Assembly: GCA_965222225.1 (NCBI GenBank)
Contig: CBDCTK010000002.1
Location: 5,216,001 to 5,280,000, forward strand
DNA length: 64,000 bases
Source of the DNA: Candidatus Poribacteria bacterium
GTDB lineage: Bacteria; Poribacteria; WGA-4E; JAJDTR01
Reading direction: 5' to 3'
Below are positions 8,821-56,261 of this stretch, in pieces. Position numbers and translations under genes: made by a program. The notes beneath the pieces were generated by a model. The model saw only the letters and a program-made list of their open reading frames with translations. It was not told the origin of the DNA and did no database searches. Position 1 is the first letter of the stretch; every line of letters starts with the position of its first letter.

Positions 8821-9015
8821 CGCAAACGACAAACTCAAAGCGTGTGGGAGGTTCGGTATAGATGCGAATCTCCCACGCACTACCAGTTGCAGGACATAGA
8901 CGGCACAGTTCATGCCGCCGACTCGACATCGGGACTCGTGCCATTGATTAATTGTCATCGAAAACAAACGATTCCTGACCAATCTTCAAACAAAACAACT
9001 CGAAAGGAGCGTGCC

Positions 9016-10650
9016 ATGAAAAAAACGATACGATTTATCCTCATCACGCTTGCGCTCGGCATTGCATCGGCAACCGTAAATCATACGGCGCTGGCAAAAA
9101 AGGAAGTCAAGCTTATCGGCGTCGAGGAAGGAAACAACAACGAACATTTAACTTCAGACATTATTGGCGACTCCGTAATTATGGGAGCGCGTGGTGCGGG
9201 TGTTGCCACAGTCCACGTCTTTGACGGAAAATCTTGGAAAAAACAGGGGGATCTGCTTGCCAGCGATCCCGACAATGATAGAGCTGCCAGACCGTCTTAC
9301 AGCCATTCAGTCGCTATCGGGGCGCCCCACGAGTTTGCTGCTGCAAACTTCGCCATTATCGGTGCGCCGCGACACCTGCATGGAGGGGAACCGGCGCTTG
9401 CGGGCAAAGGGGGATTTGGTGCAGCATATATCTTCCGCCGCGGCGGAACGAAATGGAAACAGCAAATAAAGCTCGTAGCGCCAGACCCGATGCTCGACGA
9501 CCGGTTCGGCGAGGCTGTTGGCATCTACCGGAACACCGCCGTGGTTGGAGCATCGAAAGACGACGATCAGGGCAAAAACTCGGGTTCGGTCTTCGTCTAC
9601 GTATTCGATGAGGAATCGTGGAAACCACAAGCAAAGATAGTTCCCGACGATCTCGTCGGATCAGACGCTTTCGGAGAAGCGGTATCGTTAGATGAAAGCA
9701 CCCTCGCCATCGGAGCGCCGGGGCACACGCATAGTGGAGTAAGATTCGCTGGCGCCGTCTACATCTTTGTACGTGAGAACGATAAATGGGTACAGCAAGC
9801 CAAACTCACTCCCGATGACCCCGGAAAGTCTGCTCAGTTCGGGAGTTGTATATCACTCAGCTTCAACACGGTCGTCGTTGGAGCCCCGCTGCACGACACC
9901 GAGCGCGGTAAGGATGCGGGAGCGGCTTACATCTTCGTGCGCAACGGCGAAAGATGGACGCAACAGGCAAGATTGACTTCCAGCGACACGAAAGCCGGAG
10001 ATCGATTCGGTACGGGCGTTGCCACTACTGGAAAGAGCGCCATCATCGGCGCTCCGTTTAGACCTGAAGGCGCTCCGGGATCAGGCGCAGCTTATTCCTT
10101 TATAAGCGTTGACGGGAAATGGGAAGAGAAGGAGAAAATCACCCCTGACGACGCGGGACAAAAAATCAATTACGGACTTTGGATTGCCATGAGCGGCAAC
10201 ATGGTTATTGTTTCGTCTTATGCCGCCCCAAATGAAGGCGGCGCGGAAAAGGGGATTGGCACTGCGGCTTACATCTATAATAGCGTTGACGATTTTGGTG
10301 TTTTGCCTTACGCTGTCGAAGCGTTCGGCATGAGCTTAACAACGCTGGGGAGTGTAAAGCGGACAGCCCTGCTTCAGAATTTCCCCAACCCGTTCAATCC
10401 GGAAACGTGGATGCCGTATCGCCTAGCAACCGACACGCCGGTTACCTTCCGCATATACAATAACCGAGGTCAATTGATGCGGGAGTTGGATCTCGGTCTC
10501 CAAAAAGCCGCGGACTACCTGACACGAGAAACCGCTGCCTATTGGGACGGCAGAAACCGGTTCGGAGAAACGGTGTCCAGCGGCGTCTACTTCTATAGAA
10601 TTGAAGCCGGATCTTACGAAGCCACCCGGCGGATGCTTATTTTGAAGTAA
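9016..10650 (+). CDS. FG-GAP repeat protein with C-terminal sorting domain, copy 4
   Basis: Start moved to ATG 9016 (AAGGAG RBS; MKKTIRFILITLALG signal peptide nearly identical to copy 5). Confidence 0.92.
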   Translation: MKKTIRFILITLALGIASATVNHTALAKKEVKLIGVEEGNNNEHLTSDIIGDSVIMGARGAGVATVHVFDGKSWKKQGDLLASDPDNDRAARPSYSHSVAIGAPHEFAAANFAIIGAPRHLHGGEPALAGKGGFGAAYIFRRGGTKWKQQIKLVAPDPMLDDRFGEAVGIYRNTAVVGASKDDDQGKNSGSVFVYVFDEESWKPQAKIVPDDLVGSDAFGEAVSLDESTLAIGAPGHTHSGVRFAGAVYIFVRENDKWVQQAKLTPDDPGKSAQFGSCISLSFNTVVVGAPLHDTERGKDAGAAYIFVRNGERWTQQARLTSSDTKAGDRFGTGVATTGKSAIIGAPFRPEGAPGSGAAYSFISVDGKWEEKEKITPDDAGQKINYGLWIAMSGNMVIVSSYAAPNEGGAEKGIGTAAYIYNSVDDFGVLPYAVEAFGMSLTTLGSVKRTALLQNFPNPFNPETWMPYRLATDTPVTFRIYNNRGQLMRELDLGLQKAADYLTRETAAYWDGRNRFGETVSSGVYFYRIEAGSYEATRRMLILK

Positions 10651-10670
10651 GAAAGGTAACAAACCAAGCC

Positions 10671-10729
10671 GTGTGGGAGGTTCGATTTCTAACCGCACGG
10701 GATATGCGCGGTTGGAAACCGCGCCTACC
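10671..10729. repeat. REP-like inverted doublet
   Basis: GTGTGGGAGGTTCGATTTCTAACCGCAC...GCGCGGTTGGAAACCGCGCCTAC; related hairpin at 8842-8880. Confidence 0.55.
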
Positions 10730-10791
10730 AAAGGAGTTATGAAGACAAACGAGTACCGGCAAATCTAAAGACTACTCGAAAGGAGCGTGTC

Positions 10792-12438
10792 ATGGGAAAA
10801 ACCGTACGATTCATCCTCATCACTCTTGCGCTCGGCATTGTATCGGCAACCATAAATCATACCGCGCTGGCAAAAAAGGAAGTCAAGCTTATCGGTGTCG
10901 AGGAGGGCGTTAACCACGAGCATTTGACCGCGGACATAATCGGGGACACCGTCATTATCGCGTCACGCGGCGCAGGAACCGCCACAATTTACGTCAATGA
11001 CGGCAAAGTTTGGAAAAAGCAGGAGGACCTGCAAGCCCGTGACCACAATGCTCGAGATCCGTATGTTCCCGGCTTCGCTTATTCAGTCGCTATCGGGGCA
11101 CCTCATGAGTTTGCTACTCCAAACTTCGCCATTATCGGCGCGCCAAAACACTTGCATGGAGGAGACAACCTCAAAGGGCTGGACGGGCCCGCGGGATTTG
11201 GCGCCGCCTATATCTTCCGACGCAGTGGAAAGACCTGGAAGGAACATGTCAGACTTGTTGCCCCGGATCCCGTGGATGACGACCGATACGGCGAGTCTGT
11301 TGCCATCTACAGAACCACAGCCGTGGTTGGGGCGTCGAAAGACGACGATAATGGCAAAAACTCGGGTTCCGTCTTCGTCTATGTTCTAGACGGCGCCACG
11401 AATACGTGGAAACCCCAAGCAAAAATAGTTCCCGACGATTTAGGCGGGTCAGACGCTTTCGGAGAAACGGTATCGTTGGATGAAAATACCCTTGCTGTCG
11501 GAGCGCCGGGTCACACCCACAGCGGAGTGAGATTCGCCGGCGCCGTCTACGTCTTTGTTCGCAACGGAGATAAATGGGAACAACAAGCGAAACTCACTCC
11601 CGATGACCCCGGCAAGGCTTCGAAGTTCGGGAGCGCAATATCGCTCAGCTTCAACACGCTCGTTGTTGGAGCCCCTCTGCACGACACCGAGCGCGGCAGA
11701 GATGCCGGTGCGGCTTACATCTTCGTACGCAACGGCGACAGATGGAATCAGCAGGCGAAATTGATTGCCAAAGACACAAAGGAGAAAGACCGATTCGGTA
11801 CGGGCGTCGCCACCACCGGCAAGAGCGCCATAATCGGGGCTCCGTTTCGACCTGAAGGCGCGCCGGGATCAGGCGCCGCCTATTCCTTTGTAAGCGTTGA
11901 TGGGAAATGGGGGGAGAAGGTGAAAGTCACCCCCGACGATGCCGGACAAAAGATTAATTACGGGCTCTGGGTCGCCATGAGCGGCAACATGGTCATTGTT
12001 TCGTCTTATGCCGCCGCGAACGAAGGCGGCGCCGAAAAAGGAATCGGCACTGCGGCTTACGTTTATAATAGCGTAGACGATTTCGGAGCGTTCCCCTACG
12101 CCGTCGAACCGTTCGGCATGAACCTAACAACGCTTGGGAGTGTAAAAAGAACAGCGCTGCTTCAAAATTTCCCCAACCCGTTTAATCCGGAAACGTGGAT
12201 GCCGTATCGCTTGGCGTCGGATGTCCCGGTGTCGATTCAGATTTTCAACGTAAAAGGACAACTGCTACGGGAACTGAATCTCGGAGAACAGAAAGCGGGC
12301 AGCTATCTAACCCGAGACACCGCCGCTCATTGGGATGGAAGAGATCAGGTTGGAGAAACTGTTTCCAGCGGCGTCTATTTTTATGCCCTGCATGCCGGTG
12401 CATTCCAAGCCACCCGGCGCATGCTCATTTTGAAGTAG
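10792..12438 (+). CDS. FG-GAP repeat protein with C-terminal sorting domain, copy 5
   Basis: 548 aa, same architecture. Confidence 0.92.
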   Translation: MGKTVRFILITLALGIVSATINHTALAKKEVKLIGVEEGVNHEHLTADIIGDTVIIASRGAGTATIYVNDGKVWKKQEDLQARDHNARDPYVPGFAYSVAIGAPHEFATPNFAIIGAPKHLHGGDNLKGLDGPAGFGAAYIFRRSGKTWKEHVRLVAPDPVDDDRYGESVAIYRTTAVVGASKDDDNGKNSGSVFVYVLDGATNTWKPQAKIVPDDLGGSDAFGETVSLDENTLAVGAPGHTHSGVRFAGAVYVFVRNGDKWEQQAKLTPDDPGKASKFGSAISLSFNTLVVGAPLHDTERGRDAGAAYIFVRNGDRWNQQAKLIAKDTKEKDRFGTGVATTGKSAIIGAPFRPEGAPGSGAAYSFVSVDGKWGEKVKVTPDDAGQKINYGLWVAMSGNMVIVSSYAAANEGGAEKGIGTAAYVYNSVDDFGAFPYAVEPFGMNLTTLGSVKRTALLQNFPNPFNPETWMPYRLASDVPVSIQIFNVKGQLLRELNLGEQKAGSYLTRDTAAHWDGRDQVGETVSSGVYFYALHAGAFQATRRMLILK

Positions 12439-12625
12439 GATCAAGCGAATGGATAATGAGCGCGATAGAGATCCAAAGGCGATAGAAGATCCTGATAGAG
12501 ATTCCTCAAGCGAATGGCTAGAACGACGTAAATCAACCGAACGAATAGTGAGGGCGATACCGCGTTCATAACGACCAATCAACTGAGCGCTTAACGAAGG
12601 CGATAGGAGATTCTGATCGGGATCT
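12439..12625 (+). repeat. GATCAA-hairpin repeat cluster (3 full units plus fragments)
   Basis: Units at 12439, 12531, 12577; cluster begins immediately after the stop codon. Confidence 0.85.
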
Positions 12626-12884
12626 GTAGATGATTGATGTCCTAAATAGTTCCCAAGGAAGTTCTTCCCAATCACGACTTCCCGTCCATAGAAAAACTCG
12701 CTCATACAGTTGGCTTGTCGTAGCAATCTTCGATCGTCCAATCGTCCATCTTCGTTCTTTTTATTTCGCGTCCGACTGGTCGTTCACTTGTTTGTAAACC
12801 GCGAGACGTCTAAATGTGAATGTGAATGTGAATGGCTACAATAGGACAAATCGAGAAACTTGCTCCGATTGAAAGGGGACACTC

Positions 12885-14513
12885 ATGAAAGTCATACGGT
12901 TTATCGTCATCAGCTTGTTGCTCAATTTCCTGTTCACGGCGACAGGCCAAACTGCAGGAAAGGAAATCAAGTTGATTGGTGTCGAAGATGGGTCGAACAA
13001 CAATCATCTGTCCGCAGATGTCATTGGTGACTCGGTAATCGTCGGCGCGCGAGGAGGAGGTCTCGCGAAACTCTATGTGGGCGCCGGCGAGAAATGGAAA
13101 CTGGTAGCTGAGCTCATTGCCAAAGATGCAAATCAGCGGGATCCGGCTGTACCCGCCTTTGGATGGGCGGTCTCGCTTGCTGCTCCCCATGAACGCGCCA
13201 GCGCAAACTATGCCGTCATTGGAGCGCCAAAAGACCTTCATGGCGGTGACAACGAAGAAGGAATATTCGGCCATCAAGGATTCGGCGCCGTTTATACCTT
13301 CGCTCCTAGCCGAGGTACGTGGAAGCAGCAGCATAAGATTATCGCCCCAGATCCGAAAGAGAAAGATCAGTTTGGTTTCGCTGTCTCAATCGAAAGAGGT
13401 ACCATGGTGATCGGTGCACCGGGAGAAGACGGCGCAGCCAAGGACGGGGGCGCCGCCTATGTCTTTGTACGCGATGGAGAGGAATGGAAACAGAGTGCGA
13501 AAATCATCCCCGAGGATTTGGGTGGATTGGACGCTTTCGGCGAGTGTGCTGTGCTTCGCGGGAACACCGTTGTCATCGGGGCGCCTGGGCACACGCATGG
13601 CGGAATCAGATTTACCGGTGCCGCTTACGTCTTTGTGCGCAACGGGGACACGTGGGAGCAACAGGCGAAGCTGACAGCCAATGACGCCGGCAAAGCCGAC
13701 CGGTTCGGTCATTCTGTCGCTATGGCTGGAGAGACCATCATTGTGGGTTCGCCCTTGAACGATACTGTTGGCGGAAAAGACACCGGCGCCGCCTATGTCT
13801 TTGTCCGCGATGGCGACAGGTGGAATCAGCAAGCGAAGCTAGTCGCACAAGGCTTACGAGCGAAGGATCAGTTCGGATTCGGGGTTGCCACTACGGGCAG
13901 CATAGCCGTTGTGGGCGCGCCGTTGCGCCATGAGCGCGCGCCTGCGGCGGGCGCCGCTTATTCTTTCGTGAGAGTTAATGGCGATTGGGAGGAGAAAAAG
14001 AAGGTTGTCCTCGACGACGAAAGGCAAAAACTCAATTTCGGCACATGGGTCGCCATGAGCGGCAATACCGTCGTCGTCTCGGCGCATAACGACACCAACG
14101 ATGGGCCGGGTTGGGGAAACGGCACGGCAGCGTTTGTATACAGTAGTGTAGAAGATTTCGGAACGCCGCCGTTTGCTGTTGATCCGTATGGATTGGCGCT
14201 GACGACCTTTGGTAGGGTTAGGAATACCGCGTTGCTTCAGAACTATCCCAATCCGTTCAACCCGGAAACGTGGATGCCGTACCAATTGGCGGCTGATGCC
14301 CCGGTCGCCATCAACATCTTCAACGTTCAAGGGCAACTGATTCGGGAGTTGAATCTCGGCGCACAAAAAGCGGGCACCTATCTGAGCAGAGACACCGCCG
14401 CCTATTGGGACGGTCGAGACCAGCTAGGACAGACCGTTTCCAGCGGGGTTTATTTCTACTCTATGCAGGCGGACACATTTCGTGCGACGCGGAGAATGTT
14501 CATCTTAAAATAG
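12885..14513 (+). CDS. FG-GAP repeat protein with C-terminal sorting domain, copy 6
   Basis: 542 aa, same architecture. Confidence 0.92.
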   Translation: MKVIRFIVISLLLNFLFTATGQTAGKEIKLIGVEDGSNNNHLSADVIGDSVIVGARGGGLAKLYVGAGEKWKLVAELIAKDANQRDPAVPAFGWAVSLAAPHERASANYAVIGAPKDLHGGDNEEGIFGHQGFGAVYTFAPSRGTWKQQHKIIAPDPKEKDQFGFAVSIERGTMVIGAPGEDGAAKDGGAAYVFVRDGEEWKQSAKIIPEDLGGLDAFGECAVLRGNTVVIGAPGHTHGGIRFTGAAYVFVRNGDTWEQQAKLTANDAGKADRFGHSVAMAGETIIVGSPLNDTVGGKDTGAAYVFVRDGDRWNQQAKLVAQGLRAKDQFGFGVATTGSIAVVGAPLRHERAPAAGAAYSFVRVNGDWEEKKKVVLDDERQKLNFGTWVAMSGNTVVVSAHNDTNDGPGWGNGTAAFVYSSVEDFGTPPFAVDPYGLALTTFGRVRNTALLQNYPNPFNPETWMPYQLAADAPVAINIFNVQGQLIRELNLGAQKAGTYLSRDTAAYWDGRDQLGQTVSSGVYFYSMQADTFRATRRMFILK

Positions 14514-14642
14514 AACGGGAAGAATGGAATCGTATAAGCGTGCTTTATTCTTTCTATTGCCCCTTAGCCGCTTATCCCCATTAATGAATATACAGTGTTA
14601 TTTATACCGACGAATTCAGTTTGACATCGGGAGGAAAATGTC

Positions 14643-16247
14643 ATGAAAATGTGTATAAGATTTGTCCTTATCAGTCTGATGATTGTCACTATGTCGGCGA
14701 ACATCAGTCACGCTGGCGAATTCAAACTTGTCGCTGCCGAGGATGGTACGAGAAACAGCCACATGACGGCTGACATTATCGGTGATACTCTGATTGTTGG
14801 AGTACACGAGGGGTTTGGTTTAGCCAAAATCTATGTTGGTTCCGGAAAAAAGTGGAAAGTGCAGGCAGAACTCTCCGCTCTTGAAGGCGGTGGAGACGAA
14901 AACAGAGGCGTCCCCGGATTCGGATGGTCGGTCGCACTTACCGCTCCGCATGAGTTTGCTAGCGCGGACTATGCCCTAATCGGAGCAGCAAGGGACCATG
15001 CTGCCGGAGCATTATCTGGCTCAGCCTATATCTTCGCTCGCAATCGGACGACATGGAAGGAACAGGCGAAACTCATTGGCGGAGATACAGCCAAAGAGGA
15101 CAATTTCGGCTGGGCGGTGGCTATTGACAGGAACACTGCAGTCATTGGCGCTCCCGGCGACGACGACGCCGGAAGCAGCTCGGGTGCAGCCTTTGTCTTT
15201 GAATTCGAACGCATAAAATGGAAAGAGAAAGCGAAACTCATTCCCAAGGATTTAGACCGATCAGCCGCTCTCGGAACTTCGGTCTTGGTTCAAAAGGACA
15301 CGATCATCGTCGGGGCGCCAAGGCACACGCATAGCGGTGTCAGGTTCACCGGCGCCGCCTTCGTCTTTCGACGCGACGGAGACAAGTGGGTCGAACATAC
15401 CATGCTCACCGCCGATGACGCCGCTAAAAGTGACAGTTTCGGTACTTCGATTGCCATAAGCGGCGACACGGTTGTCGTAGGCGCGCCATTAGCCGATACG
15501 GACAGAGGAAAAGATGCTGGCGCCGCCTATGTCTTCGTTCGCGATGCCGGTGGATGGAAACAGCAGGCGAAACTGGGTTCCAGCGATGCAAAGAAAGCCG
15601 ATCAGTTCGGATCTAGTGTCGCCATTGAGGGAAACAACGTCATCGTTGGCGCCAAAACTCGCGACGAGGGCGAACCGGGCTCGGGCGCCGCATATTCATT
15701 TGTGCGTTCGAACGGGGTATGGGAGCAGAAACAGAAAGTCGCACCCGATGACCCCGGGCAAAAGATTAATTACGGTACTTGGGTCGCTGTGAGCGGCAAC
15801 ACCGTCATTGTCTCGGCACATAACGGGCCGAACGATGGCCCCGAATGGGGTAAAGGCGCCACGGTTCACATCTATAACGGCATTGAAGATTTCGACGCAG
15901 TACCCTACTCAGTCGAGCCGTTCGGTTTGGCTGTGACAACTTTCGGGAAGATTAGGCGTACAGCGCTGCTTCAGAATTTTCCCAATCCCTTCAACCCGGA
16001 GACATGGCTGCCGTATCGATTGGCGGCTGATGCTCCCGTGACCCTCCACATCTACAATGTCCGAGGACAACAGATAAGAGAACTCGATCTCGGCGTACAA
16101 AAGGCGGGAGGCTATCTAAACCGAGAAACCGCCGCTTATTGGGATGGTAGAGACAATGTCGGACAGACCGTTTCCAGTGGAGTCTACTTCTACAGTCTAC
16201 AGGCAGACACATTCCGTGCAACGCGCAGAATGCTTATTTTGAAGTAG
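14643..16247 (+). CDS. FG-GAP repeat protein with C-terminal sorting domain, copy 7
   Basis: 534 aa, GGAGG RBS, same architecture. Confidence 0.92.
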   Translation: MKMCIRFVLISLMIVTMSANISHAGEFKLVAAEDGTRNSHMTADIIGDTLIVGVHEGFGLAKIYVGSGKKWKVQAELSALEGGGDENRGVPGFGWSVALTAPHEFASADYALIGAARDHAAGALSGSAYIFARNRTTWKEQAKLIGGDTAKEDNFGWAVAIDRNTAVIGAPGDDDAGSSSGAAFVFEFERIKWKEKAKLIPKDLDRSAALGTSVLVQKDTIIVGAPRHTHSGVRFTGAAFVFRRDGDKWVEHTMLTADDAAKSDSFGTSIAISGDTVVVGAPLADTDRGKDAGAAYVFVRDAGGWKQQAKLGSSDAKKADQFGSSVAIEGNNVIVGAKTRDEGEPGSGAAYSFVRSNGVWEQKQKVAPDDPGQKINYGTWVAVSGNTVIVSAHNGPNDGPEWGKGATVHIYNGIEDFDAVPYSVEPFGLAVTTFGKIRRTALLQNFPNPFNPETWLPYRLAADAPVTLHIYNVRGQQIRELDLGVQKAGGYLNRETAAYWDGRDNVGQTVSSGVYFYSLQADTFRATRRMLILK

Positions 16248-16350
16248 ATCAAGCTAGTGGATAGCGAGTAGAATGCTCTATCGGAGTTCTATCGCACTCC
16301 TTATTCATTCGCTCGATCCCTCCTTATTCAGTCGGTTGATCGATTGCGAT
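16247..16350. repeat. GATCAA-hairpin repeat cluster with inverted units
   Basis: Plus-strand partial at the stop codon; full minus-strand unit 16289-16318; further minus-strand partial to ~16341. Confidence 0.8.
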
Positions 16351-16448
16351 CTTTCTTGCCCCGCCTTGGATAGAATTGACTTGCACCATTAATGCACCGC
16401 ACAGTTCCTGTTTTTTTGCGTAAGTCCTGAAAATAGAGGGAGATCACC

Positions 16449-18053
16449 ATGACAAAAATGTTGCAATCCGTCTTCAGTTGTCTAATGCTCTGCATCCTGT
16501 TCGCTGCCGTAGGTAATGCCGCCGGATTCAAGTTGGTTGCCGTTGAGGAGGGGACCAGAAATGGCCATCTAACGTCCGATATTAATGGGGACACCATAAT
16601 CATTGGAGCGCATGCGGGTTTCGGCATGGCAAAAATCTACGTTGGGAGTGGCACAAAATGGAAAGAACAGGCTGAACTTACCGTGAAGCCCGTCGGTGGA
16701 GACGTGGAAAGGAGCATTCCCGCTTTCGGATGGGCTGTCGCTCTTACGGGCCCCCATGAGTTGGCTAGTCCCGACTATGCAGTTATCGGGGCGGCAAGGG
16801 CCGGAGCAGATCAATCGCTGGCTGGAGCGGCATATATTTTCGTCCGCAACCGTAACCAATGGAACGAACAAGCGAAACTGGTCGGCGCGGATGTGGCGCC
16901 AGCCGACAGTTTTGGACATGCGGTCTCCATTGAAAGGGAGGTTGCCGTCATTGGTTCGCCCGGCGATGATGATGCCGGTAGCAGCTCGGGTTCGGCATAT
17001 ATCTTCGTCCGCAACGGAACCGAATGGAAACAGCAGGTTAAGCTCGCTCCGGCAGATCTACAACGCTCGGACGCCTTCGGAAGTGCCGTTCTAGTCTATA
17101 GGAACACCATCATTGTCGGGGCGCCGAAACATACGCATAGCGGTGTTAGATTCACCGGCGCGGCTTACGTGTTTGAACGCAACGGGGACACTTGGGTACA
17201 AGAGACCAAACTCGCAGCCGACGATTCCGCCCCGAGCGACAATTTCGGAGCTTCTCTTGCGATGAGCGGAAACACCATCATCGTTGGCGCGCCGTTAACT
17301 GACACCGACCGTGGAAAAGATACCGGTGCAGCCTATGTTTTCGTCCGAGAGGGCGGAGGGTGGCGGCAGCAGGCAAAACTCGGTTCCGGCGACGCAAAGA
17401 AAGCCGATCAGTTTGGGTCTGGTGTTGCCACAAGTGGAAGTATCGTCATCGTTGGCGCCAAAACTCGTGATGCAGGTGGACCGGGATCAGGGGCGACATA
17501 TTCCTTCGTGCGGGTTAACGGACGCTGGGAGGAGCGGGAAAAGGTCTTGCCTAGAGATTCGGGGCAAAAGATCAACTACGGGGAATGGGTCGCAATAAGA
17601 GGCAACACCGTCATAGTTTCCGCGCACAACGCACCCAATGACGGGCCCGAATCAGCCCACGGCGCCGTGGTGTACGTTTACGATAGCGTCAAAGATTTCA
17701 ACACGCCGCCATTCGCTGTCGTGCCCTCTGACTTGAGCGTAACAACACTGGGACAGATCAAGCGCACGGCGCTGCTTCAGAACTTCCCCAATCCGTTTAA
17801 CCCGGAGACCTGGCTGCCGTACCGCTTGGCGAACGACGCCGATGTCAAAATTCGCATCTACGATGTCCGTGGGAGTTTAACGCGCGAGTTAAATCTCGGG
17901 ACGCAAACATCGGGCGAATACCTGACACGAAAAACAGCCGCCTATTGGGACGGTAGAAACCAATTCGGTGAGACCGTATCGAGTGGCATTCACTATTACA
18001 CATTGCGTGCTGGCTCGTTCCAAGCCACGCGGAGAATGTTGGTCGTGAAATAG
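16449..18053 (+). CDS. FG-GAP repeat protein with C-terminal sorting domain, copy 8
   Basis: 534 aa, body most similar to copy 7. Confidence 0.92.
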   Translation: MTKMLQSVFSCLMLCILFAAVGNAAGFKLVAVEEGTRNGHLTSDINGDTIIIGAHAGFGMAKIYVGSGTKWKEQAELTVKPVGGDVERSIPAFGWAVALTGPHELASPDYAVIGAARAGADQSLAGAAYIFVRNRNQWNEQAKLVGADVAPADSFGHAVSIEREVAVIGSPGDDDAGSSSGSAYIFVRNGTEWKQQVKLAPADLQRSDAFGSAVLVYRNTIIVGAPKHTHSGVRFTGAAYVFERNGDTWVQETKLAADDSAPSDNFGASLAMSGNTIIVGAPLTDTDRGKDTGAAYVFVREGGGWRQQAKLGSGDAKKADQFGSGVATSGSIVIVGAKTRDAGGPGSGATYSFVRVNGRWEEREKVLPRDSGQKINYGEWVAIRGNTVIVSAHNAPNDGPESAHGAVVYVYDSVKDFNTPPFAVVPSDLSVTTLGQIKRTALLQNFPNPFNPETWLPYRLANDADVKIRIYDVRGSLTRELNLGTQTSGEYLTRKTAAYWDGRNQFGETVSSGIHYYTLRAGSFQATRRMLVVK

Positions 18054-18251
18054 TATTAACGCACTTCGGTTGGTGTTAACGTATTATGCCACACCTCCGT
18101 CCTGTAGAAGGGAATCTACTTTACGATAGGTTTTTGGCGAAACTTTCGTTCATCAAATCAGAGATACTCACCAAACACTCATTTATTTGCGGTCAAAGAC
18201 AAACATTTGTTGCATCTTCCTGACATCGACAAACATCGAGAGGAGATTTCC

Positions 18252-19826
18252 TTGAAACACTTAAAGTTAATTCTAGCCGCTCTAATCCTTGGTATTGGCC
18301 TAGCAACCTTCACTCACACCGCTTTGGCGCAAAAGGGCATCAAGCTGATTGCAGACGAGGACAACGACATCGGATCTCAACTGTCCGCCGCTATAAGCGA
18401 AAACTCTGTGATTGTTGGATCAATTTCTGAAAACACTGTGACAGTGTTTGCATTCGATGGAAAAAACTGGGCAAAACAAGCGGAACTAATCCCTCGAGAC
18501 GAGGGCAGTGTCGGATGGTCGGTCGCCATCAGCGGCGACAGCCTGATCATCGGCGTTCCTCATGACGATGCTGGCGCCGAAACCTCAGGCTCAGCATTTA
18601 TTTTTGTTCGGAAGGGCCAAAACTGGGATCAGCGAGCGAAACTGGGCACCGACGACCCGACAAAAGCGGACAATTTCGGATATTCTGTAGCGATTGACAG
18701 GAATACCGCCATTGTTGGTGTCCCGAGGGACGATGACGCGGGCAAAGACTCCGGATCAGCCTACGTATTCTTCCGCGAGGGGGCAGCGTGGAGGAAGCAG
18801 GCGAAGCTAGTTGGCTCGGATCTGGCGGGTGGAGACGCCTTCGGCGAATCTGTCTTCTTCCATGGCAACACGGCTGTCGTCGGTGCGAATGGACATACAC
18901 ATAGTGGCGCGAGATTTGCCGGCGCAGCTTACGTTTTCGTGCGTAGTGGAGATCGGTGGACAGAAAAAGCCAAACTCGTAGCTGCCGATGCCGCGAAAGC
19001 CGACCGTTTCGGAAGTTCGGTTAGCATGAGCGGAAAGACCATTGTTGTCGGGGTGCCGTTTCATGACACTGAACGCGGAACCGATGCGGGAGCCGCCTAT
19101 GTCTTTGCGCTTGACGGAGCAGCTTGGAAATTTCAAGCCAAGCTCACGCCTAACAAATCAAAGAAAAACCTTAAGTTCGGATTTGGCGTTGCCACCACTG
19201 GAAGAATTGTCATTGTTGGGGCACCAGGGCACGACGATCCGGCGAGAGGTTCAGGCGCCGCCTATTCCTTCGTACGCACCGAAGGTGTTTGGGCAGAAAA
19301 AGCTACTGTCGTACCGGAGGACGGCGCCAAAGATTTACACTTCGGCTCCGCGATCTCCATGAGCGAGAACGCGGTTGCTGTCGCGTCCCATAGTGGGCCA
19401 TTTTTGAACCACGACGGAAAACCCAACGGCGATGGCCACGCCGCATATATCTATAGTAGTATCGAGGATTTTGGAACGCCGCCGTTTGCTGTTGATCCGT
19501 TTGGATTGAGAGTGACGACGCTAGCTCAAGTTAAGCGGACAGCGCTCCTTCAGAATTTTCCCAATCCGTTTAACCCGGAAACCTGGATTCCGTATCGCTT
19601 GGGTGCTGACTCCGACGTTACACTTAGCATTTACAATGTCCAAGGGCAACTCATGCGACAATTAAATCTAGGTGAACAAACCGCCGGTGAGTATTCTACG
19701 CGAGAACGCGCTGCCTATTGGGATGGACGCAATAGTCGGGGTGAACACGTGTCAAACGGAATCTATTTCTATCAATTGTCCACTCCAACCTTCGATCGGA
19801 CGAAACGGATGGTAATTGTAAAATAG
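18252..19826 (+). CDS. FG-GAP repeat protein with C-terminal sorting domain, copy 9
   Basis: Likely TTG start at 18252 after GAGGAG; signal peptide MKHLKLILAALILGIGLATFTHTALA. Confidence 0.9.
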   Translation: MKHLKLILAALILGIGLATFTHTALAQKGIKLIADEDNDIGSQLSAAISENSVIVGSISENTVTVFAFDGKNWAKQAELIPRDEGSVGWSVAISGDSLIIGVPHDDAGAETSGSAFIFVRKGQNWDQRAKLGTDDPTKADNFGYSVAIDRNTAIVGVPRDDDAGKDSGSAYVFFREGAAWRKQAKLVGSDLAGGDAFGESVFFHGNTAVVGANGHTHSGARFAGAAYVFVRSGDRWTEKAKLVAADAAKADRFGSSVSMSGKTIVVGVPFHDTERGTDAGAAYVFALDGAAWKFQAKLTPNKSKKNLKFGFGVATTGRIVIVGAPGHDDPARGSGAAYSFVRTEGVWAEKATVVPEDGAKDLHFGSAISMSENAVAVASHSGPFLNHDGKPNGDGHAAYIYSSIEDFGTPPFAVDPFGLRVTTLAQVKRTALLQNFPNPFNPETWIPYRLGADSDVTLSIYNVQGQLMRQLNLGEQTAGEYSTRERAAYWDGRNSRGEHVSNGIYFYQLSTPTFDRTKRMVIVK

Positions 19827-46673: not shown

Positions 46674-47122
46674 TTTACCTCATTGTGTGTTTAGCGAGTT
46701 GGAAATTTGTGCTAAGTTTAGGGCAATAATCCAACCAAGGATTTTCGCAAATGCGAATTCTTGGATTCAAGCATTCAGGTGAGACGGTGCTTCGAACACG
46801 CGCGTTCATCGGTGTGATTTGCTGATTCCGAGGGGTTGAACTCCGGTTATCCACATAGACGATTTGGAAGGTGGATAGTTTAAGCTGCATCAGGATGTTT
46901 CGACAGATCCAGGTTTATGGAAAATGTGCGACATTCCGAGGAAGGGATTGTCAGGTCCTAGAACACATCGGAACAACGCTGGGAATGCGTGCAGAAACCT
47001 GAGTGTTTGGTAAATTCTGTCGTTCGGTACGGTTTTGTCACTTGTGAAGTAAGTTCGGAATGTGTAAAATCTTGCACCAAGTCGGAACACAACGCACGCG
47101 ATATATAGCCGGAGAAACTGTA

Positions 47123-49260
47123 ATGCCTAGGTTGATTCAAGGATACGTCGCTATCGAAAATGGAGATCGCTTGGAAGGTGTGTCGGTATCCAACGGTAGG
47201 GAGATTGTCCAAACCGATGGCCGTGGTCTGTATCAACTGTCGTGTTGCTCTGAGACTCGTTTCGTTTGTATTACCGTACCCGCGGGGTACGCGGCTGCGG
47301 ATGGGTTCTACATTGACCTGCAAACAACGTCGAACTTCGATTTCGCTCTACGGCATCACCCCGAAAGTAAGAGTACATCGTTCTCGTTTGTGCAAATTAC
47401 CGATCTCCACACCACGGTCGATGATGGTGTGTTTCTGGAACAAGATCTTGCGCAGATACATCGGGAGGTAGGTCACAAGGCTCAGTTCATTGTGGCAAGT
47501 GGCGATTTGACAGATGGCGGGCAACGGGAGGAATACAAAACCTATCTCGGCGCTATAGCAAAATCCGAGCTTCCCGTCTATCACGCTGTTGGCAATCACG
47601 ATGATCGTGCCGAAAAATGGGGAACAAATTTCATGGATGTGCTGGGACCAATGTACTACAGTTTCGACTACGGTCCTCTGCATTTCGTCGTTTACGATGG
47701 AAGGAGAAGACGACGTACTGACAGCACAGACCAGGAATGCTGGATGCGTGCAGATCTCGAATTGCAGCCTCCAAACAAGCCGGTGGCAATCATCAACCAC
47801 TACCCTTGGGGTAGCGAGTTCTACGATCAGTGGAAAGCCTACCCAATCATAGCGACCTTGTCCGGACACTGGCACTCCACTCGGCTGTTCGTGGATGGGC
47901 AGACCGTGCACTATAATACGCCTAGCCTCGGATTTGGCGGCAGCGATCAGAGCCCGCGAGCATATCGTCTATTCACCTATGAGCGTGGAAAACTGAATGC
48001 GGTAAGCCGGGCGCTGGTGTCGTCGGAGACTTTTTCCGGCATTAGTTTTCGGCCGTCCGCGGACAACGTCGCAGGTGTCCTGCATCGATTTGAGGAAACA
48101 CATCCCGAGCCTGGAGCAGATTGGTACCTATTTCACGGAAACGCACGTCGGACGGGGAGCGCCCTAATCGGACCGCACCCACCGTTGTCTTTGGCTTGGC
48201 GAGCGGGCACCGGTGGGTCAATACACATTGCCGCGCCACTGGTGGTTGAAGGATTGGTCTTCCAGTCCACGAAGAACGAGGATACACTTTCCGGCAATGG
48301 GCTTTCGGCGTTTGATGCGCGTAACGGCGCTCTGCAGTGGCGCCATACCACCAACTCCGCCATAAAGCGTGCGCCCGCCTACTGCGATGGTCGTCTATTT
48401 CTAGTGACCACAACCGGCTTGGTGCAGGCGCTTACCGCAGAAAGGGGCGAACGGCTATGGAGTTACGAGTTGGGAGACGCGTCTCGGCTCTGGGTGTATA
48501 CCGCGCCGCTAGTAGTACGCGATCGAGTGTACATCGGTGCGAATTCACGCGTCGTGGCATTAGATCAGGAAACCGGCGATGTCGTTTGGCGTCGAGATGA
48601 CCTAGTGCCGGACGATTTTCCTCCCTGTACCAACTCACCGTCTGCCTGCGGCGGATACATTGTGGTGGGGTTTTATGGACAACCGACGAATCTGATGGTA
48701 TTGGACGCCACAATCGGCAAGACGGTATGGACCAAAGCCGAGGAAATCCGTACGATATTTATTCTACGCCGGTCATTGATGAGGATGGTACGATTTACAC
48801 GGTCAGCGCTGGCGCGGTTCGAGCCTACGACTTGGAAACAGGGGCATTGAAGTGGGAGGCGCCGTTTACGCTTAATCGTGTCCGTGCAACACCTGCACTG
48901 GCTGAGGGTCGACTTTTTGTTTGTACGGGTAGCGGGACGCTGCATGCCCTTGAGGCGGAGTGCGGCAGGGAACTCTGGAAGTGGAGTGCATGCGGGAACG
49001 CGCCGTTGTTTACCCCTTACGCGCGTGAAGGGGGCGTCACGCTTGCATCACCGGTCGTGGCTGGAAACTGTGTCTACGTTGCGGCGGCGAACGGTTATCT
49101 TTATGCCCTGGACACAGCCACGGGAACGTGTGTGTGGGGACACAATCTCCAAATCCCCTTGGCTGCGTCCCCAGCCATTTCCGGCAACGGCGTTTGGGTT
49201 GGGGGCTGCGACGGGTTTGTCTACGCTTTTGCCTCGTCGGAACACATAATACTCTTGTAG
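47123..49260 (+). pseudogene. Calcineurin-like metallophosphoesterase fused to a PQQ/BamB-like beta-propeller, 1-bp frameshift
   Basis: GVSVSNGREIVQTD, QITDLH, SGDLT, GNHD, LSGHWH; PQQ-like repeats continue in ORF 48727-49260 after a shift at ~48742. Confidence 0.8.
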
Positions 49261-51033: not shown

Positions 51034-51115
51034 GTAGGTTGGGTTGAACAATCAAGCGACTGAATAGGGAATGCGATAGTGACTCCCTGCGATAGGAATC
51101 CTAGTGAAACCCAAC
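51034..51115 (+). repeat. REP-like GTAGGTTGGGTT...AACCCAAC hairpin with GATCAA-hairpin units in its loop
   Basis: Stem halves at 51034-51049 and ~51103-51115 flank the unit at 51050 and an orphan 3' half. Confidence 0.8.
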
Positions 51116-51142: not shown

Positions 51143-52567
51143 CTAGAATGGGTTGAGTTCGTTTTTAAGTTCTTCCACCGCATTCATGGCATCCTCCAAT
51201 TCCTGTCTAGGTATGTTCACAATGGTAGCATGGCTGAGCGGGTTAAGGATAATGCTTCGACCCAATTCGATTTCGTGAATGAGAGTTTGTTTTAGTTTGC
51301 AAGTGACTTTGTTTTTGATTTTGATGGAATCCCAGAAATCCTGACTGTCCAGTTTCTTCGGGTCGCTGCGATACCGGACCGGGAGACGTTCATCATCGCA
51401 ATACTTTTTTATTATTGTTTCAAAAGCCGTGCGGATGTAGATTGCACAAGCTTTGTAGTCGCAGGCATCAAGATGTTCCTGTGCCTTCTCAAGATACGCC
51501 TTATTTTCCACATAGACCGGCATTTCAAATTTGTCTGTTTGTGCGAAATAGAATTCAACGGCTTTCCATTGCCTGTTCGCGGAGGCCCACTGTTTGACAA
51601 TCTCATACCACGCCTTATCGTAAGTCATCAGAAAAATCTGGTACTCTGAGAAATATTTCTTCAGAATGTCAAGTACCGGGAAACGATTTGACATGTCCAA
51701 GCCAATCAACACGTCGTCAAGAGCGAGAATCTTCAACTCGCTGTCCGGTTGAAGTAAGAACCCTGCGAAATAGAGGGATAAAGCAATCGCAGACAGTTTC
51801 GCTTCGTTCAAGAAACTGTGATACGCGGCGAGATCTCTGTCAAGAAACTTCACCTTTAGTGAAATCTGCTGATTATCTAGCGTCTTGTCGTGACGGTTGT
51901 ACTTAATCTTATCAAAGCCCAGGTCCAGAATAACATTGTATCCAAACTCGTTGAGGATTTCAGATGTCAACGTCTGTAGTTCTGCTAGCTTACCGGTCAA
52001 CTCATTATTGAACGATTCAACTTGTTCTTCAAGTTCTGCAATCTGTGTGGTTGCGTTTCGGCGAGGACGTGGTGCTTTTCGTAGGTCATCCCAGTCGTCG
52101 ACGAGACTTCGATTGGATTTGTCGCCAATAGTATTACCTAAGAGATTGTCAATCAGTAGCACGAAGACATTCACGTCCTCTTCATCGTGATTGACATTAT
52201 GCGTCTTCAGAAGCGCCTTGTAATCTAGGAAGCCCTTTGCCTTTGATGCATCAATAATACGTTGGTTCTCCGTCTCTCTAACAGTTCGCGACCATTTGTA
52301 GATACACTCATTTGGAACTGAATCCGCCTGGAGATGGAGCTTAGTGTATCCATCATCCTTAATGAAGATGTTCTGATGATTTTCAAATCGGGCAGAGGTA
52401 TCCTCACTGGATTCAAGAAACGACTTTAATGCCAGATACAGCGACGATTTTCCGCTCCCATTCTCGCCGTAGACCAGCAGATTTTTCCCTGCTTTATGAA
52501 GGTCAATCTCCAAGGTTCCACGGAAGGCTCTGAAGTTTTTAGTCTTGATTTTGGTGATTCTCACCAC
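51143..52567 (-). CDS. ABC/AAA-family ATPase with HEPN-like C-terminus (RloC/PrrC-like architecture)
   Basis: KNFRAF, GENGSGKSS, coiled coil, degenerate signature FLNEAK, LALDDVLIGLD..NR; C-terminal IRTAFE...RSIILNPLSH. Confidence 0.8.
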   Translation of the reverse strand: MVRITKIKTKNFRAFRGTLEIDLHKAGKNLLVYGENGSGKSSLYLALKSFLESSEDTSARFENHQNIFIKDDGYTKLHLQADSVPNECIYKWSRTVRETENQRIIDASKAKGFLDYKALLKTHNVNHDEEDVNVFVLLIDNLLGNTIGDKSNRSLVDDWDDLRKAPRPRRNATTQIAELEEQVESFNNELTGKLAELQTLTSEILNEFGYNVILDLGFDKIKYNRHDKTLDNQQISLKVKFLDRDLAAYHSFLNEAKLSAIALSLYFAGFLLQPDSELKILALDDVLIGLDMSNRFPVLDILKKYFSEYQIFLMTYDKAWYEIVKQWASANRQWKAVEFYFAQTDKFEMPVYVENKAYLEKAQEHLDACDYKACAIYIRTAFETIIKKYCDDERLPVRYRSDPKKLDSQDFWDSIKIKNKVTCKLKQTLIHEIELGRSIILNPLSHATIVNIPRQELEDAMNAVEELKNELNPF

Positions 52568-55500
52568 TTGTCCTCAATGATACGAATCGGTCTTAGACTA
52601 TCCTGAAAGAAAAGGTTGACCCGAACTGGATGTTCTTTATGGTACAGGCGCTCATATAGAGCGCGGAATGCAAACATTTTATCTCCGTGAATCTCTTTCA
52701 CTTCCGACAACTGCTCCGCCATCAGATGTTTGAATAAATCTCTGTTACCGCCCTGGAGCACATCGGGCATGTAGAACTCATAAAACAGCCCGTTGATTAT
52801 ACGCTCGAAATATTTGAGCATCAGGAAATCGCGAGCATGGGCTAAATCCTTGCCGCTCGTTGTCGGTTGGTTTTGAAGATAGATGAGGTACTCGACAATC
52901 TTGCGAACCAAGTTTTTCTGCTCTGCATTGAGGTCGGGAACGGGAATCTGCTTTATAAAGCCGCCGCGCGCTTGAAGTTCGCCCGGGCCTGACTGGTCAG
53001 AAACTTGGTAATAGAACCACTCCACGGTGCGCGTATTGAGTAAACCGCACAACCACGTTTGCTCCGTGGGGATGATGTAGCAAGTAGAGCCGCAAAAATA
53101 TCCATCGGCCTCAACCGCAAAGGTTTGGGTGTTATAAAGGTTCGGACAGACCAGCTTCGGTACCGCATAGCGCTCAATCTCCTCGACGGATGCTTGGAGC
53201 TCGTACCATCCCCCTTTGCCTTTTCTCTTGCTAAGAGAATCTCGGTGTTTTTCTAGGTGTCTTCGAATGGCTGGATAGGCGTTTATCTCTATACCACGGT
53301 AGGCAAAGATTAACCACTGCTCCGGTGGTTCCACTTGCCAGCGTCTTATGTCCCGCCCATGCAGGATTGGCTTCAGAATATCTTCGGACGAAGGGTGTTC
53401 TGCAATCAGTTTATCTCGCGTTTTGCCGTCTACTACAAACACATCAGTCGGTGCTGTTTTGATTCCGAAAAAGGGCTGCGTCTTGATATATTCTCCCAAC
53501 GGCGTACCAGTATCGCGAAGTCTCTTCTCCAAATTCAACATTTCTGGAGAATCATCCAGAGAACGAGAAGACTTTTCATCGACGGTTATGGCTTTTTCTT
53601 TCATGGGATAACGGTTCCTAAAACCTTGGCGAACCAACATCGCGATATCTTCCGGCAACTTAACCTGATTTGCCCGCTCAAAGGCGGCAATGTTTTTGTA
53701 ATCGTTGCGAAACGCCGCGCCAATATCCACACCTTTCTTCTTGGCAGTGATCAGATTTGCTTTGGCTTTGTCCCATTCTTTCAGGTGCAACCAAACTTCA
53801 GCGCGATTGTAATAGGCGTTAGCATAATCTCGTTTTATCGCGACATCATACTCTTCAATTGCGCGATTGTACTCACCGTTTTTGTAATAAGCAACTCCCC
53901 GATTGTTGTAGGCTACAGCAAGCGCCGGGTTGAGTTCAATGACTTTGCTATAGTCCTTGATGGATCGGTCAAATTCGCGTTGTTGATAATAAGCAATAGC
54001 ACGATTGTGATAGGCGAGGAAGCAATTAGGTTTCAGTTCTATTGCCTTATTATAGTCCTTGATGGCCCGATCAATTTCGCCCTTGTTGCGATACGCAGCA
54101 CCGCGGTTGTTATATGGTGCGGGATTCCAAGGTTCCAGTTCTATTGCCCTAGTACAGTCGATGATAGCGCGATCGTTCTCGCCTTTACTACGGTAAGCAC
54201 CTCCACGATTGCTGTAGGCCGCGGCATAGTTCTGTTTGCGCGCTATTGCTTTGCTAAAATCCTCAATAGCCCGGTCATGTTCACCTTTGTTACTGTTGAG
54301 CGTCCCACGATTGTTATAAGGCTCGGGATCGTCAGGATTGAGTTTTATCGCTGTGTTGTAATCTTTGACAGCTAGGCCAATCTTCCCTTGTTCATCGTAA
54401 GCAATGCCTCGGCTGTTATATGCGTTCGCATAATTGGGATTGAGTTGTATTGCTTTGTTAAAGTCTTTGATTGCCCGATCAACTTCATCCTTTTCGTGGT
54501 AAGCAATGCCGCGGTTGTTATAGGGATCAGCACAATAGGGATTGAGTTTAATCGCCACGTTAAATTCGTCAATTGCGCGATTGATTTCACCATGGTCACG
54601 GTAAGCAACCCCTCGATTATTATAGGCATTGGCATAATCCGGTTTGAGTTTGATAGCCATGTTAAAGTCTTTAATAGCTCGGCCATAATTACCTTTATCG
54701 TAGTAAACTGCACCACGATTATTGTATGGTTCGGCAAGGCCTGGGTTTAATTGTATTGCTGTATTAAAGTCTTTGATGGCTTGGTCTACCTCGCCCTTAT
54801 CGCGGTAAGCATTACCCCGATTGTTATAAGCTATGAAAGAGTCGGAATTTCGATCTATCGCTTTGGTGAAGTCTTTTATGGCCCTTTTGATGTCGTGCTT
54901 ATTGCTGTAAACCATTCCGCGATTATTATAGGCCATGGCAAAATCGGGTTCGTGTTTAATTGCAGTGTTAAAGTCTTTTATGGCCCGGTCATAATTACCT
55001 CTATCACAGTATGCATTGCCGCGATTATAGTAGGCGTTGGCATCGTCGGCCCTAAGTTCTATCGCGGCATTAAAATCCTTGATAGCAAGGTCATACTCGC
55101 CCAGTTTGTGATAGGCAATCCCTCGGTTGTTGTAGGGCTTGTCCTCATTGGGATTACGTCGTATCGCGTGATTAAAGTCCTTGATAGCAAGTTCAACCTC
55201 GTCTTTATCGACGTAAACAGTGCCGCGATTGTTATAGGCGGCGGCATCACCAGGATTGAGTTGTATCGCTTGATTGAAGTCCTTGATGGCAAAGCCATAC
55301 TCACCTTTGCTGTTATACGCAACCCCGCGGTTGTTGTATGCGTCGGTATCACGGGGGTTGAGTTCAACCGCCAGTGAGTAAGCTTCTATAGCCCCGTCTA
55401 TTTGCCCAAGCCTCAGAAGAAAATCACCTTGTTGGAACGCCGATTCAGCGCGTAACTCTCGTTCAGACATCCTAGGTGCCGAATCCTCCTGAACTAGCAT

Positions 55501-56004
55501 TTTGCGAACCGCTTTCCGGGTACCCTCCACCACATTTTGCCAGCCTTTGCTCCTAGGATTCCATTCGTTGAGAGGTTTGCCTTCGGCAGGGAGAACTTGG
55601 ATGTCACCGAGTATCTGGGGTTCCCATCTGTTAGGGTGCAAGCCCTCGGCGGACGGAGCCTTAGTACTTCTCAATTGATGATTCTCCCAGTCGCACGCCT
55701 CAAGGATAATCGGAATAACCCGTGTGTCTGTTTTTAACGCCTCTGCCAACTCCTTGTTGCAATTATTAGAGGCAAGACTTGCAGCCGAGACTAAGTATAG
55801 GAGAATATCCGAATTGGCTAGGTTATCGGCAATGTCTCTATACCACTCATCGCCCGGGAGAATTTCGTTGTCGTCCCAAAGTTCTATCTCGCCTCTGTTT
55901 TCCATCACGGCAAGGCGAGTTCTCAATTCCTTCCTTTCTTCTTTATCGTTATGTGAATAAGTAATGAATGCTTTTGGTCCTGCGCCCATTCTCATGTTCT
56001 CCAC
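52561..56004 (-). CDS. TIR domain - about 17 TPR repeats - TaqI_C-like DNA target recognition domain fusion
   Basis: AFITYSHND...WDDNEILPGDEW...SNNCNKEL...VIPIIL (TIR); 34-aa AYNNRG repeats; GIKT...LKPILHGRDIRRW...YPAI..HL...WYELQ...PKLV...LCGLLNT...IKQIPVP (type IIG R-M specificity region). Confidence 0.9.
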   Translation of the reverse strand: MENMRMGAGPKAFITYSHNDKEERKELRTRLAVMENRGEIELWDDNEILPGDEWYRDIADNLANSDILLYLVSAASLASNNCNKELAEALKTDTRVIPIILEACDWENHQLRSTKAPSAEGLHPNRWEPQILGDIQVLPAEGKPLNEWNPRSKGWQNVVEGTRKAVRKMLVQEDSAPRMSERELRAESAFQQGDFLLRLGQIDGAIEAYSLAVELNPRDTDAYNNRGVAYNSKGEYGFAIKDFNQAIQLNPGDAAAYNNRGTVYVDKDEVELAIKDFNHAIRRNPNEDKPYNNRGIAYHKLGEYDLAIKDFNAAIELRADDANAYYNRGNAYCDRGNYDRAIKDFNTAIKHEPDFAMAYNNRGMVYSNKHDIKRAIKDFTKAIDRNSDSFIAYNNRGNAYRDKGEVDQAIKDFNTAIQLNPGLAEPYNNRGAVYYDKGNYGRAIKDFNMAIKLKPDYANAYNNRGVAYRDHGEINRAIDEFNVAIKLNPYCADPYNNRGIAYHEKDEVDRAIKDFNKAIQLNPNYANAYNSRGIAYDEQGKIGLAVKDYNTAIKLNPDDPEPYNNRGTLNSNKGEHDRAIEDFSKAIARKQNYAAAYSNRGGAYRSKGENDRAIIDCTRAIELEPWNPAPYNNRGAAYRNKGEIDRAIKDYNKAIELKPNCFLAYHNRAIAYYQQREFDRSIKDYSKVIELNPALAVAYNNRGVAYYKNGEYNRAIEEYDVAIKRDYANAYYNRAEVWLHLKEWDKAKANLITAKKKGVDIGAAFRNDYKNIAAFERANQVKLPEDIAMLVRQGFRNRYPMKEKAITVDEKSSRSLDDSPEMLNLEKRLRDTGTPLGEYIKTQPFFGIKTAPTDVFVVDGKTRDKLIAEHPSSEDILKPILHGRDIRRWQVEPPEQWLIFAYRGIEINAYPAIRRHLEKHRDSLSKRKGKGGWYELQASVEEIERYAVPKLVCPNLYNTQTFAVEADGYFCGSTCYIIPTEQTWLCGLLNTRTVEWFYYQVSDQSGPGELQARGGFIKQIPVPDLNAEQKNLVRKIVEYLIYLQNQPTTSGKDLAHARDFLMLKYFERIINGLFYEFYMPDVLQGGNRDLFKHLMAEQLSEVKEIHGDKMFAFRALYERLYHKEHPVRVNLFFQDSLRPIRIIEDKW

Positions 56005-56098: not shown

Positions 56099-56261
56099 AA
56101 TCCGCGTAATCAGTTTAATCCGATCAACTGACTGAATAACGAGGGATCAAGCGACTGAACAAGGAGCGCGATAGAGATCCCATAGTAAATCCCGTAGTGA
56201 CCGATCAACTGAGTGGTCAACGAAGGCGATAGCAGATCCCGATAGAAATCCCATTCAGACA
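56099..56261 (+). repeat. AATCCG...ATTCAGACA element filled with nested GATCAA-hairpin units
   Basis: Units at 56122 (split), 56145, 56203; an unfilled relative is at ~19928-19969. Confidence 0.8.

Follow-up and report, generated by a model that had tools for sequence, protein, structure and literature searches.

A TIR-TPR fusion to a type IIG TRD, coupled to an ABC ATPase with a predicted HEPN domain, is a conserved and apparently undescribed candidate variant of R-M-linked defense in Candidatus Poribacteria

As described in PMC3710099, PrrC is an ABC-HEPN RNase whose R-M partner keeps it silent until anti-restriction proteins set it free. PARIS (AriA/AriB) is, according to bioRxiv 2024.01.29.577857, triggered by anti-restriction proteins, and E. 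coli TIR-II, as presented in PMC11350192, carries a TIR domain with catalytic Glu beside TPR repeats. Here, a cassette of two genes (A and B) from Candidatus Poribacteria was compared with these systems. It lies in the window, i.e. the whole 64,000 nt stretch of DNA that was analyzed, and both genes, like all parts of them located below, are on the minus strand. B resembles PrrC-EcoprrI and the PrrC/RloC/APECO1_4465 class of PMC3710099 in combining a Rad50/SbcC-like ABC ATPase with a C-terminal HEPN domain, which is predicted in B, and it shares with PrrC-EcoprrI a position beside R-M genes, for which that source proposes that they hold the ABC-HEPN protein inactive. Unlike in PrrC, the partner of B derives from type IIG and not from type I hsdMSR, has neither MTase nor nuclease, and is joined to an effector-TPR part. 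The likeness to PARIS as given in bioRxiv 2024.01.29.577857 is that of an ABC-ATPase defense, with similarity of B at the level of the P-loop only. A is like TIR-II (PMC11350192) by architecture; unlike TIR-II and Thoeris ThsB, it has a C-terminal TRD and a coupled ATPase-HEPN partner, and its TIR is replaceable by FRG, DUF2971 or HNH. A ThsA-like neighbor was found neither in the window nor in 33 further loci, as far as these are annotated. The A-B pair is outside type IIG R-M, PrrC proper, RloC and Thoeris, in agreement with the first-pass annotation, which had not recognized the architecture as a named system. Neither the fusion nor the extension-linked pair described below was found in the literature searched; beyond it, the ABC ATPase classification of Krishnan et al. 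2020 or the supplements of PMC3710099 may list the clade of B. We regard A-B as a real, conserved and apparently undescribed variant of R-M-linked ABC-HEPN defense.

Gene A (52561..56004) encodes 1147 aa, arranged as TIR, 17 TPRs, cap and linker, TRD and a helical tail. Profile searches identified the TIR_2 domain (aa 13-112; 55669..55968), in which Glu85 is kept, as well as the TRD, as had been annotated. The 17 TPR units (53722..55455) have a period of 102 nt, with copies 60-73% alike, and are followed by a cap and linker (53551..53721); eight further TPR paralogs in this genome share the cap, with which those proteins end. The TRD (aa 819-1023; 52936..53550) has the fold of gamma-class N6-adenine MTases and of type IIG C-termini and stands without a catalytic domain. 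Behind it lie an MmeI_C-like helical hairpin (aa 1024-1078; 52771..52935), of a kind that type IIG C-termini share, and a C-terminal extension of ~70 aa (52561..52770), which is found in IIG or TRD genes linked to ATPase-HEPN genes and co-varies with the ATPase. The PADLOC type IIG match is confined to aa 821-1038, and the ThsB1 model matches gene A with E 4e-23; Atlas matches to the tail belong mostly to unnamed clusters. In TRD sequence and fold, A is like type IIG/Eco57I-TaqI-like R-M enzymes with SNF2-PLD helicase; unlike these, it has no catalytic motifs, its TRD is conserved and not swapped, and it carries the B-linked extension. MTase motifs I (FxGxG) and IV (NPPY) were absent from the chain, and an N-terminal nuclease domain was not found, the N-terminus being TIR and TPR throughout, which bears out the earlier reading. 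In this genus the mean net charge of the TRD is +0.5, versus +5.0 in 28 non-Poribacteria TRDs, and with this loss of positive charge DNA binding may be weak. The junctions of the fusion are bridged by contigs from independent runs, and the annotated TIR-TPR17-TRD fusion is real. Contigs of both genes were also present in RNA run X15, although contigs cannot show transcription.

The stop of gene A overlaps the start of gene B, and B is an ABC ATPase of 474 aa, both as first annotated. Its ATPase part (51548..52567) has a Rad50/SMC-like head with Walker A GENGSGKS, a Walker B ending in DD and an H-loop TYD, and a short coiled coil, with one helix of 35 residues in the insert. Walker A and B are invariant in the B alignment; the H-loop is deviant, with Thr-Tyr-Asp (Tyr in place of His) in 39 of 53 rows. 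Pfam AAA_13 covers the P-loop only. The C-terminal helical domain (51143..51535), with R379, E383, R437, N442 and H446, is predicted to be HEPN: its His is invariant, and HEPN, DUF4145 and 2q00 matches were obtained below curated cut-offs. R437 is kept in 32/53 and 49/64 rows, and B departs from canonical ABC-HEPN proteins in the spacing R-x8-H (canonical Rx4-6H) and in the Tyr of the H-loop. RloC has a long coiled coil with a zinc hook; unlike RloC, B is only 474 aa long, and no conserved CxxC was found among the invariant columns of its family. Retron-PtuAB is an ABC-ATPase defense guard, and unlike in PARIS or retron-PtuAB the effector of B is a fused, predicted HEPN and not TOPRIM or HNH. 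No PADLOC model of PrrC or RloC was among the best 25 of 67 matches, and Atlas matches to the HEPN domain of the B homolog P0125 were mostly to unnamed clusters. By analogy with PrrC/RloC, B is a putative toxic RNase, probably of tRNA. Between close relatives (L031, L033, L034, L035) and the window, the ATPase and HEPN halves are mosaic, with identities of 90%/60% in L031 and 63%/85% in L034.

By source names, the relatives are Ca. Poribacteria. All 120 listed of the 625 matches to A(730-1147) combine TPR and TaqI_C, and a near-full-length TRD-tail is present in 30 of 61 related (Poribacteria) genomes; the partial matches left over in these genomes proved, as far as they were inspected, to be TRDs from ordinary IIG genes. 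For locus comparison, the window and the 33 best other loci were used (34 fusion loci). B is the next gene after the fusion in 30 of them, with a 4 or 7 nt overlap in 29; one locus has an in-frame A-B deletion fusion and three lack B. The fused state with TPRs is kept in 32 of 33 full-length loci from three families. The TRD-tail is a separate frame in L056. A profile search detected B in 28 of the 61 genomes, and every copy with visible upstream DNA sits behind a TRD-tail, one copy lying at a contig edge. In G009 (L036) the tail is frameshifted and B reads intact, which may be an assembly error. The first-pass annotation had set out in advance that a fusion unique to this assembly, an unsupported junction or a neutrally evolving TRD would count against it; none of these was found, since the same fusion with the same neighbor recurs and the TRD has dN/dS values of 0.12-0.18. 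The other parts gave 0.10-0.20 (tail), 0.16 (TIR), 0.24 (TPR), 0.15 (ATPase) and 0.21 (HEPN), and all domains of A and B are under purifying selection. Two further observations were made in these arrays. In L063 (10769-13117) the in-frame deletion joins TIR, TPR and half of the TRD to the C-terminal ATPase half and an intact-looking HEPN (782 aa), removing the tail and Walker A. A second ABC ATPase fused to DUF4435 occurs at L044:8491-10155, with similar ORFs in L047 and L051, and is present in two of the three loci without B.

The B family comprises 532 representatives at E<=1e-30. To sample B outside Poribacteria, at least 64 loci from a GTDB scan and three plasmid records were taken. Six of the Poribacteria fusion type (L069, L070, L072, L073, L085, L086) and 12 others (E>1e-40), unmatched or with a weak match to the P-loop only, were set aside, and 49 non-Poribacteria family loci were counted. 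Among these 49 listed loci an NPPY-type ORF lies upstream in 39, a SNF2-type helicase in 35 and a TPR match in only one. Outside Poribacteria, B lies behind complete type IIG genes that end in a ~70-aa homolog of the last part of A, the extension, or behind TRD+extension genes that stand alone. The ordinary IIG genes found upstream of Poribacteria fusions lack this extension. Starting from B, the extension was found within 4 kb in 40 of the 49 listed loci, including 12 of 21 outside the profile, and an extension match was absent in nine. Starting from the extension, 602 genomes (301 cyanobacterial and 301 of the Bacteroidota phylum) gave 22 matches (9 and 13, respectively); with two seeds left out, B or a remnant lay within ~2 kb in 16 of 20, and four were without B, one of these near a contig end. 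In L154 (G493) two ORFs, which we take by eye to resemble a DarT/DarG toxin-antitoxin pair, lie between the IIG extension (5362) and B (7179).

The distances of the extension correlated with those of the ATPase halves (Spearman 0.62/0.50 for 28 non-Poribacteria pairs, 0.69/0.69 for 25 Poribacteria pairs), compared with 0.38/0.44 for the adjacent hairpin, 0.21/0.44 for the TRD and 0.31/0.32 for HEPN. In two close relatives a divergent tract sets in with the extension and continues across the ATPase. As the extension tracks the B ATPase better than its own neighboring domains, the conserved unit is, judged by sequence, the extension together with ATPase-HEPN, which resembles PrrC as a pair. Linkage leads one to expect some co-variation between neighboring genes, and related sequences are not independent samples; both inflate the correlations, so that a contact of extension and ATPase is suggested rather than demonstrated. 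The earlier idea that the DNA-reading domain was kept together with a downstream toxin gene stands as to retention and was corrected as to the element tied to B, which is the last ~70 residues of A and not the TRD proper.

The fusion TRDs form one clade (FastTree, SH support 1.0), grouped largely by family, whose neighbors in the tree are IIG/TRD sequences of cyanobacteria and a single Poribacteria IIG without tail; they are conserved, and IIG TRDs are scattered across the tree. A single fusion origin within Poribacteria from an operon type of helicase, type IIG(+extension) and ATPase-HEPN is shown, and the ancestral type of helicase, IIG and B is seen in many phyla. As proposed in the first pass, a type IIG gene lost its catalytic half but kept the TRD and the downstream ATPase-HEPN, on the evidence of the TRD tree and of IIG+B loci elsewhere. 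In Poribacteria, a derivative seems to have become fixed whose catalytic half has given way to an effector-TPR gene. MTase-less TRD+extension genes also precede B in Nostoc (L065, L071) and Desulfonema (L080), the latter with the order helicase, tail-less IIG, TRD+tail and B, which indicates that loss of the catalytic half with TRD and tail kept has recurred. L066, a TRD-like ORF without extension match, was not counted here, and L092 was dropped as a stand-alone TRD because it is a split IIG.

The N-termini of 153 fusion proteins (two overlapping sets) were surveyed: 86 have TIR of two types, 29 FRG (the type also of L057, L060 and L061), three DUF2971 and one a weak HNH, and in ~30 the TPRs are preceded by little or no sequence, which in some cases may reflect contig edges or start calls. 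TPR number ranges from 3 to 20. The window allele was compared with fusion alleles and with the stand-alone upstream TIR-TPR genes of G005, G006 and G007. From nt -20 to 280 it is 86-96% identical to the upstream TIR genes versus 51-76% to fusion alleles, and from nt 340 onward fusion alleles share 75-98% identity with it and the upstream genes 5-71%. The window allele is a recombinant with its crossover at the end of TIR (nt ~280-345 of A; 55655..55725, approximate), its TIR being derived from a TIR-TPR paralog that lies upstream in the same array; what precedes the TRD is thus exchanged when tandem paralogs recombine. The TIR is a replaceable passenger, and of the annotated replacement of the catalytic half by TIR-TPR, the replacement holds and the TIR as its defining part does not, being one of several interchangeable N-termini.

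In this genus the site is a variable array of defense-type genes, among which a type IIG gene, TPR genes with FRG, DUF2971 or TIR, and a DUF433/DUF5615 pair can occur; its last members are usually the fusion and B. The site is empty in G002, and G006 lacks the fusion-B pair. This genome has nine cap-terminated TPR paralogs, with a TRD continuation in gene A only. The DUF433/DUF5615 pair lies just upstream of the fusion in L031-L036, L063 and L165 (in L035 a DUF433-like gene only); its absence from the window is consistent with the deletion that made the window allele. The cassette lies between members of a repeat family that occurs hundreds of times in the genome, with an interspersed, genome-wide repeat upstream (56123..56235; up to ~360 overlapping BLAST pieces) and a related copy downstream (51051-51082). 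Elsewhere in the genome, an unlinked locus (L064; G000:C2:4421369-4431653) contains a type IIG gene split into 906 and 330 aa, a TIR-TPR gene without TRD, whose TIR is 48% identical to that of the window, and a SNF2-PLD helicase, and FRG-like/TPR paralogs are split or interrupted by transposase-like sequence at G000:C2:3566165-3568886, 3291104-3292468 and 3979570-3983258. On the plus strand of the window, a metallophosphoesterase-PQQ-repeat gene (47060-49260) is apparently split into 596 and 177 aa, possibly by a frameshift or assembly error, its relatives in L031 and L033 being ORFs of ~708 aa; seven ORFs of like size (534-602 aa; 7168-19826) are possibly tandem paralogs.

We tentatively favor, at somewhat less than an even chance, that A and B form a PrrC-like abortive-infection guard. 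In this model the C-terminal extension of A would bind and restrain the predicted RNase B, a phage signal would be caught by the TPR array or the catalytically orphaned TRD, and this signal would both release B and switch on TIR, a putative NADase or signal maker. Binding of A to B, the sensed signal and the coupling of the two arms are thereby all presumed. Extension and ATPase are co-inherited and co-vary, and the fusion persists without B (three loci) or with B split or truncated (five of 34), the asymmetry expected of a toxin and its restrainer. Speaking against the model are the frameshifted tail beside an intact-reading B in G009, the B loci without an extension match and the extension matches without B, the deviant H-loop, R437 and HEPN matches of B, and the reduced positive charge of the TRD. 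The two arms need not be coupled, since effector-TPR genes occur without TRD, and TRD-tail with B without TPR. The main rival, which we consider rather unlikely, places two independent defense modules in one polypeptide: effector-TPR would work alone like TIR-II, the TRD-tail would be a structural partner or antitoxin of B, B would sense infection via its own ATPase, and the fusion would be a one-time read-through that persisted because the tail was expressed. The common cap-terminated paralogs without TRD, the free variation of N-terminus and TPR number, with ~30 fusions having little before the TPRs, the separate TRD-tail frame of L056 and the sufficiency of a stand-alone TRD+tail in Nostoc are in keeping with it; the fused state including TPRs in all listed homologs and nearly all full-length loci, and purifying selection on the whole TRD beyond the tail, argue against it.

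Within the guard model, an integrated decoy receptor is a more doubtful proposition, in which the catalysis-stripped TRD would be bait for phage DNA mimics or anti-restriction proteins, wired by the tail to ATPase-HEPN and by the TPRs to a reshuffled N-terminal effector. Ocr is reported in PMC11341690 to bind PglX at its C-terminal domain, which makes a decoy role of the TRD plausible. A further, improbable reading takes A for an accessory subunit that serves a tail-less type IIG enzyme elsewhere in the cell, docking B onto the R-M machinery or supplying an alternative specificity domain in a system of three or four components. A tail-less IIG gene upstream of the fusion in 14 of 34 loci, the Desulfonema gene order and the unlinked IIG, TIR-TPR and helicase locus of this genome would fit; no IIG lies within ~10 kb upstream in the other 20, the window included, the unlinked IIG is split into two frames, and the fusion TRD is conserved versus the scattered IIG TRDs. 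A selfish addiction module or decaying R-M remnant without defense role is very improbable: the distribution is patchy (30/61 genomes) and B is broken or lost in 8/34 loci, but selection is purifying on all domains and TRD+tail+B recurs independently in other phyla. TPR proteins are enriched in sponge symbionts and sponge metagenomes are among the holders, but that TIR-TPR is a eukaryote-like protein for sponge-host interaction with TRD and B as passengers is the least probable reading of all, as A starts directly with TIR, with no signal peptide by eye, the alternatives to TIR are FRG, DUF2971 and HNH, the neighboring genes are of R-M and toxin-antitoxin type, and B is translationally coupled.

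Taken together, the cross-phylum pairing of type IIG and ABC-HEPN genes presents a ~70-aa module as candidate interface, and helicase-IIG(+extension)-B may be the type IIG counterpart of the PrrC system. If the extension is the interface, restraint of a PrrC-like RNase by R-M would be testable in a minimal two-gene system, the TRD-tail and ATPase-HEPN of Nostoc. If the decoy reading is true, the tail would moreover mark out a PrrC analog that is linked to type IIG, widespread and undescribed. For Poribacteria, the cassette is a record of an R-M enzyme turned into a sensor scaffold, and the window allele a concrete recombination event by which a dominant lineage of sponge symbionts exchanged immune effector domains.
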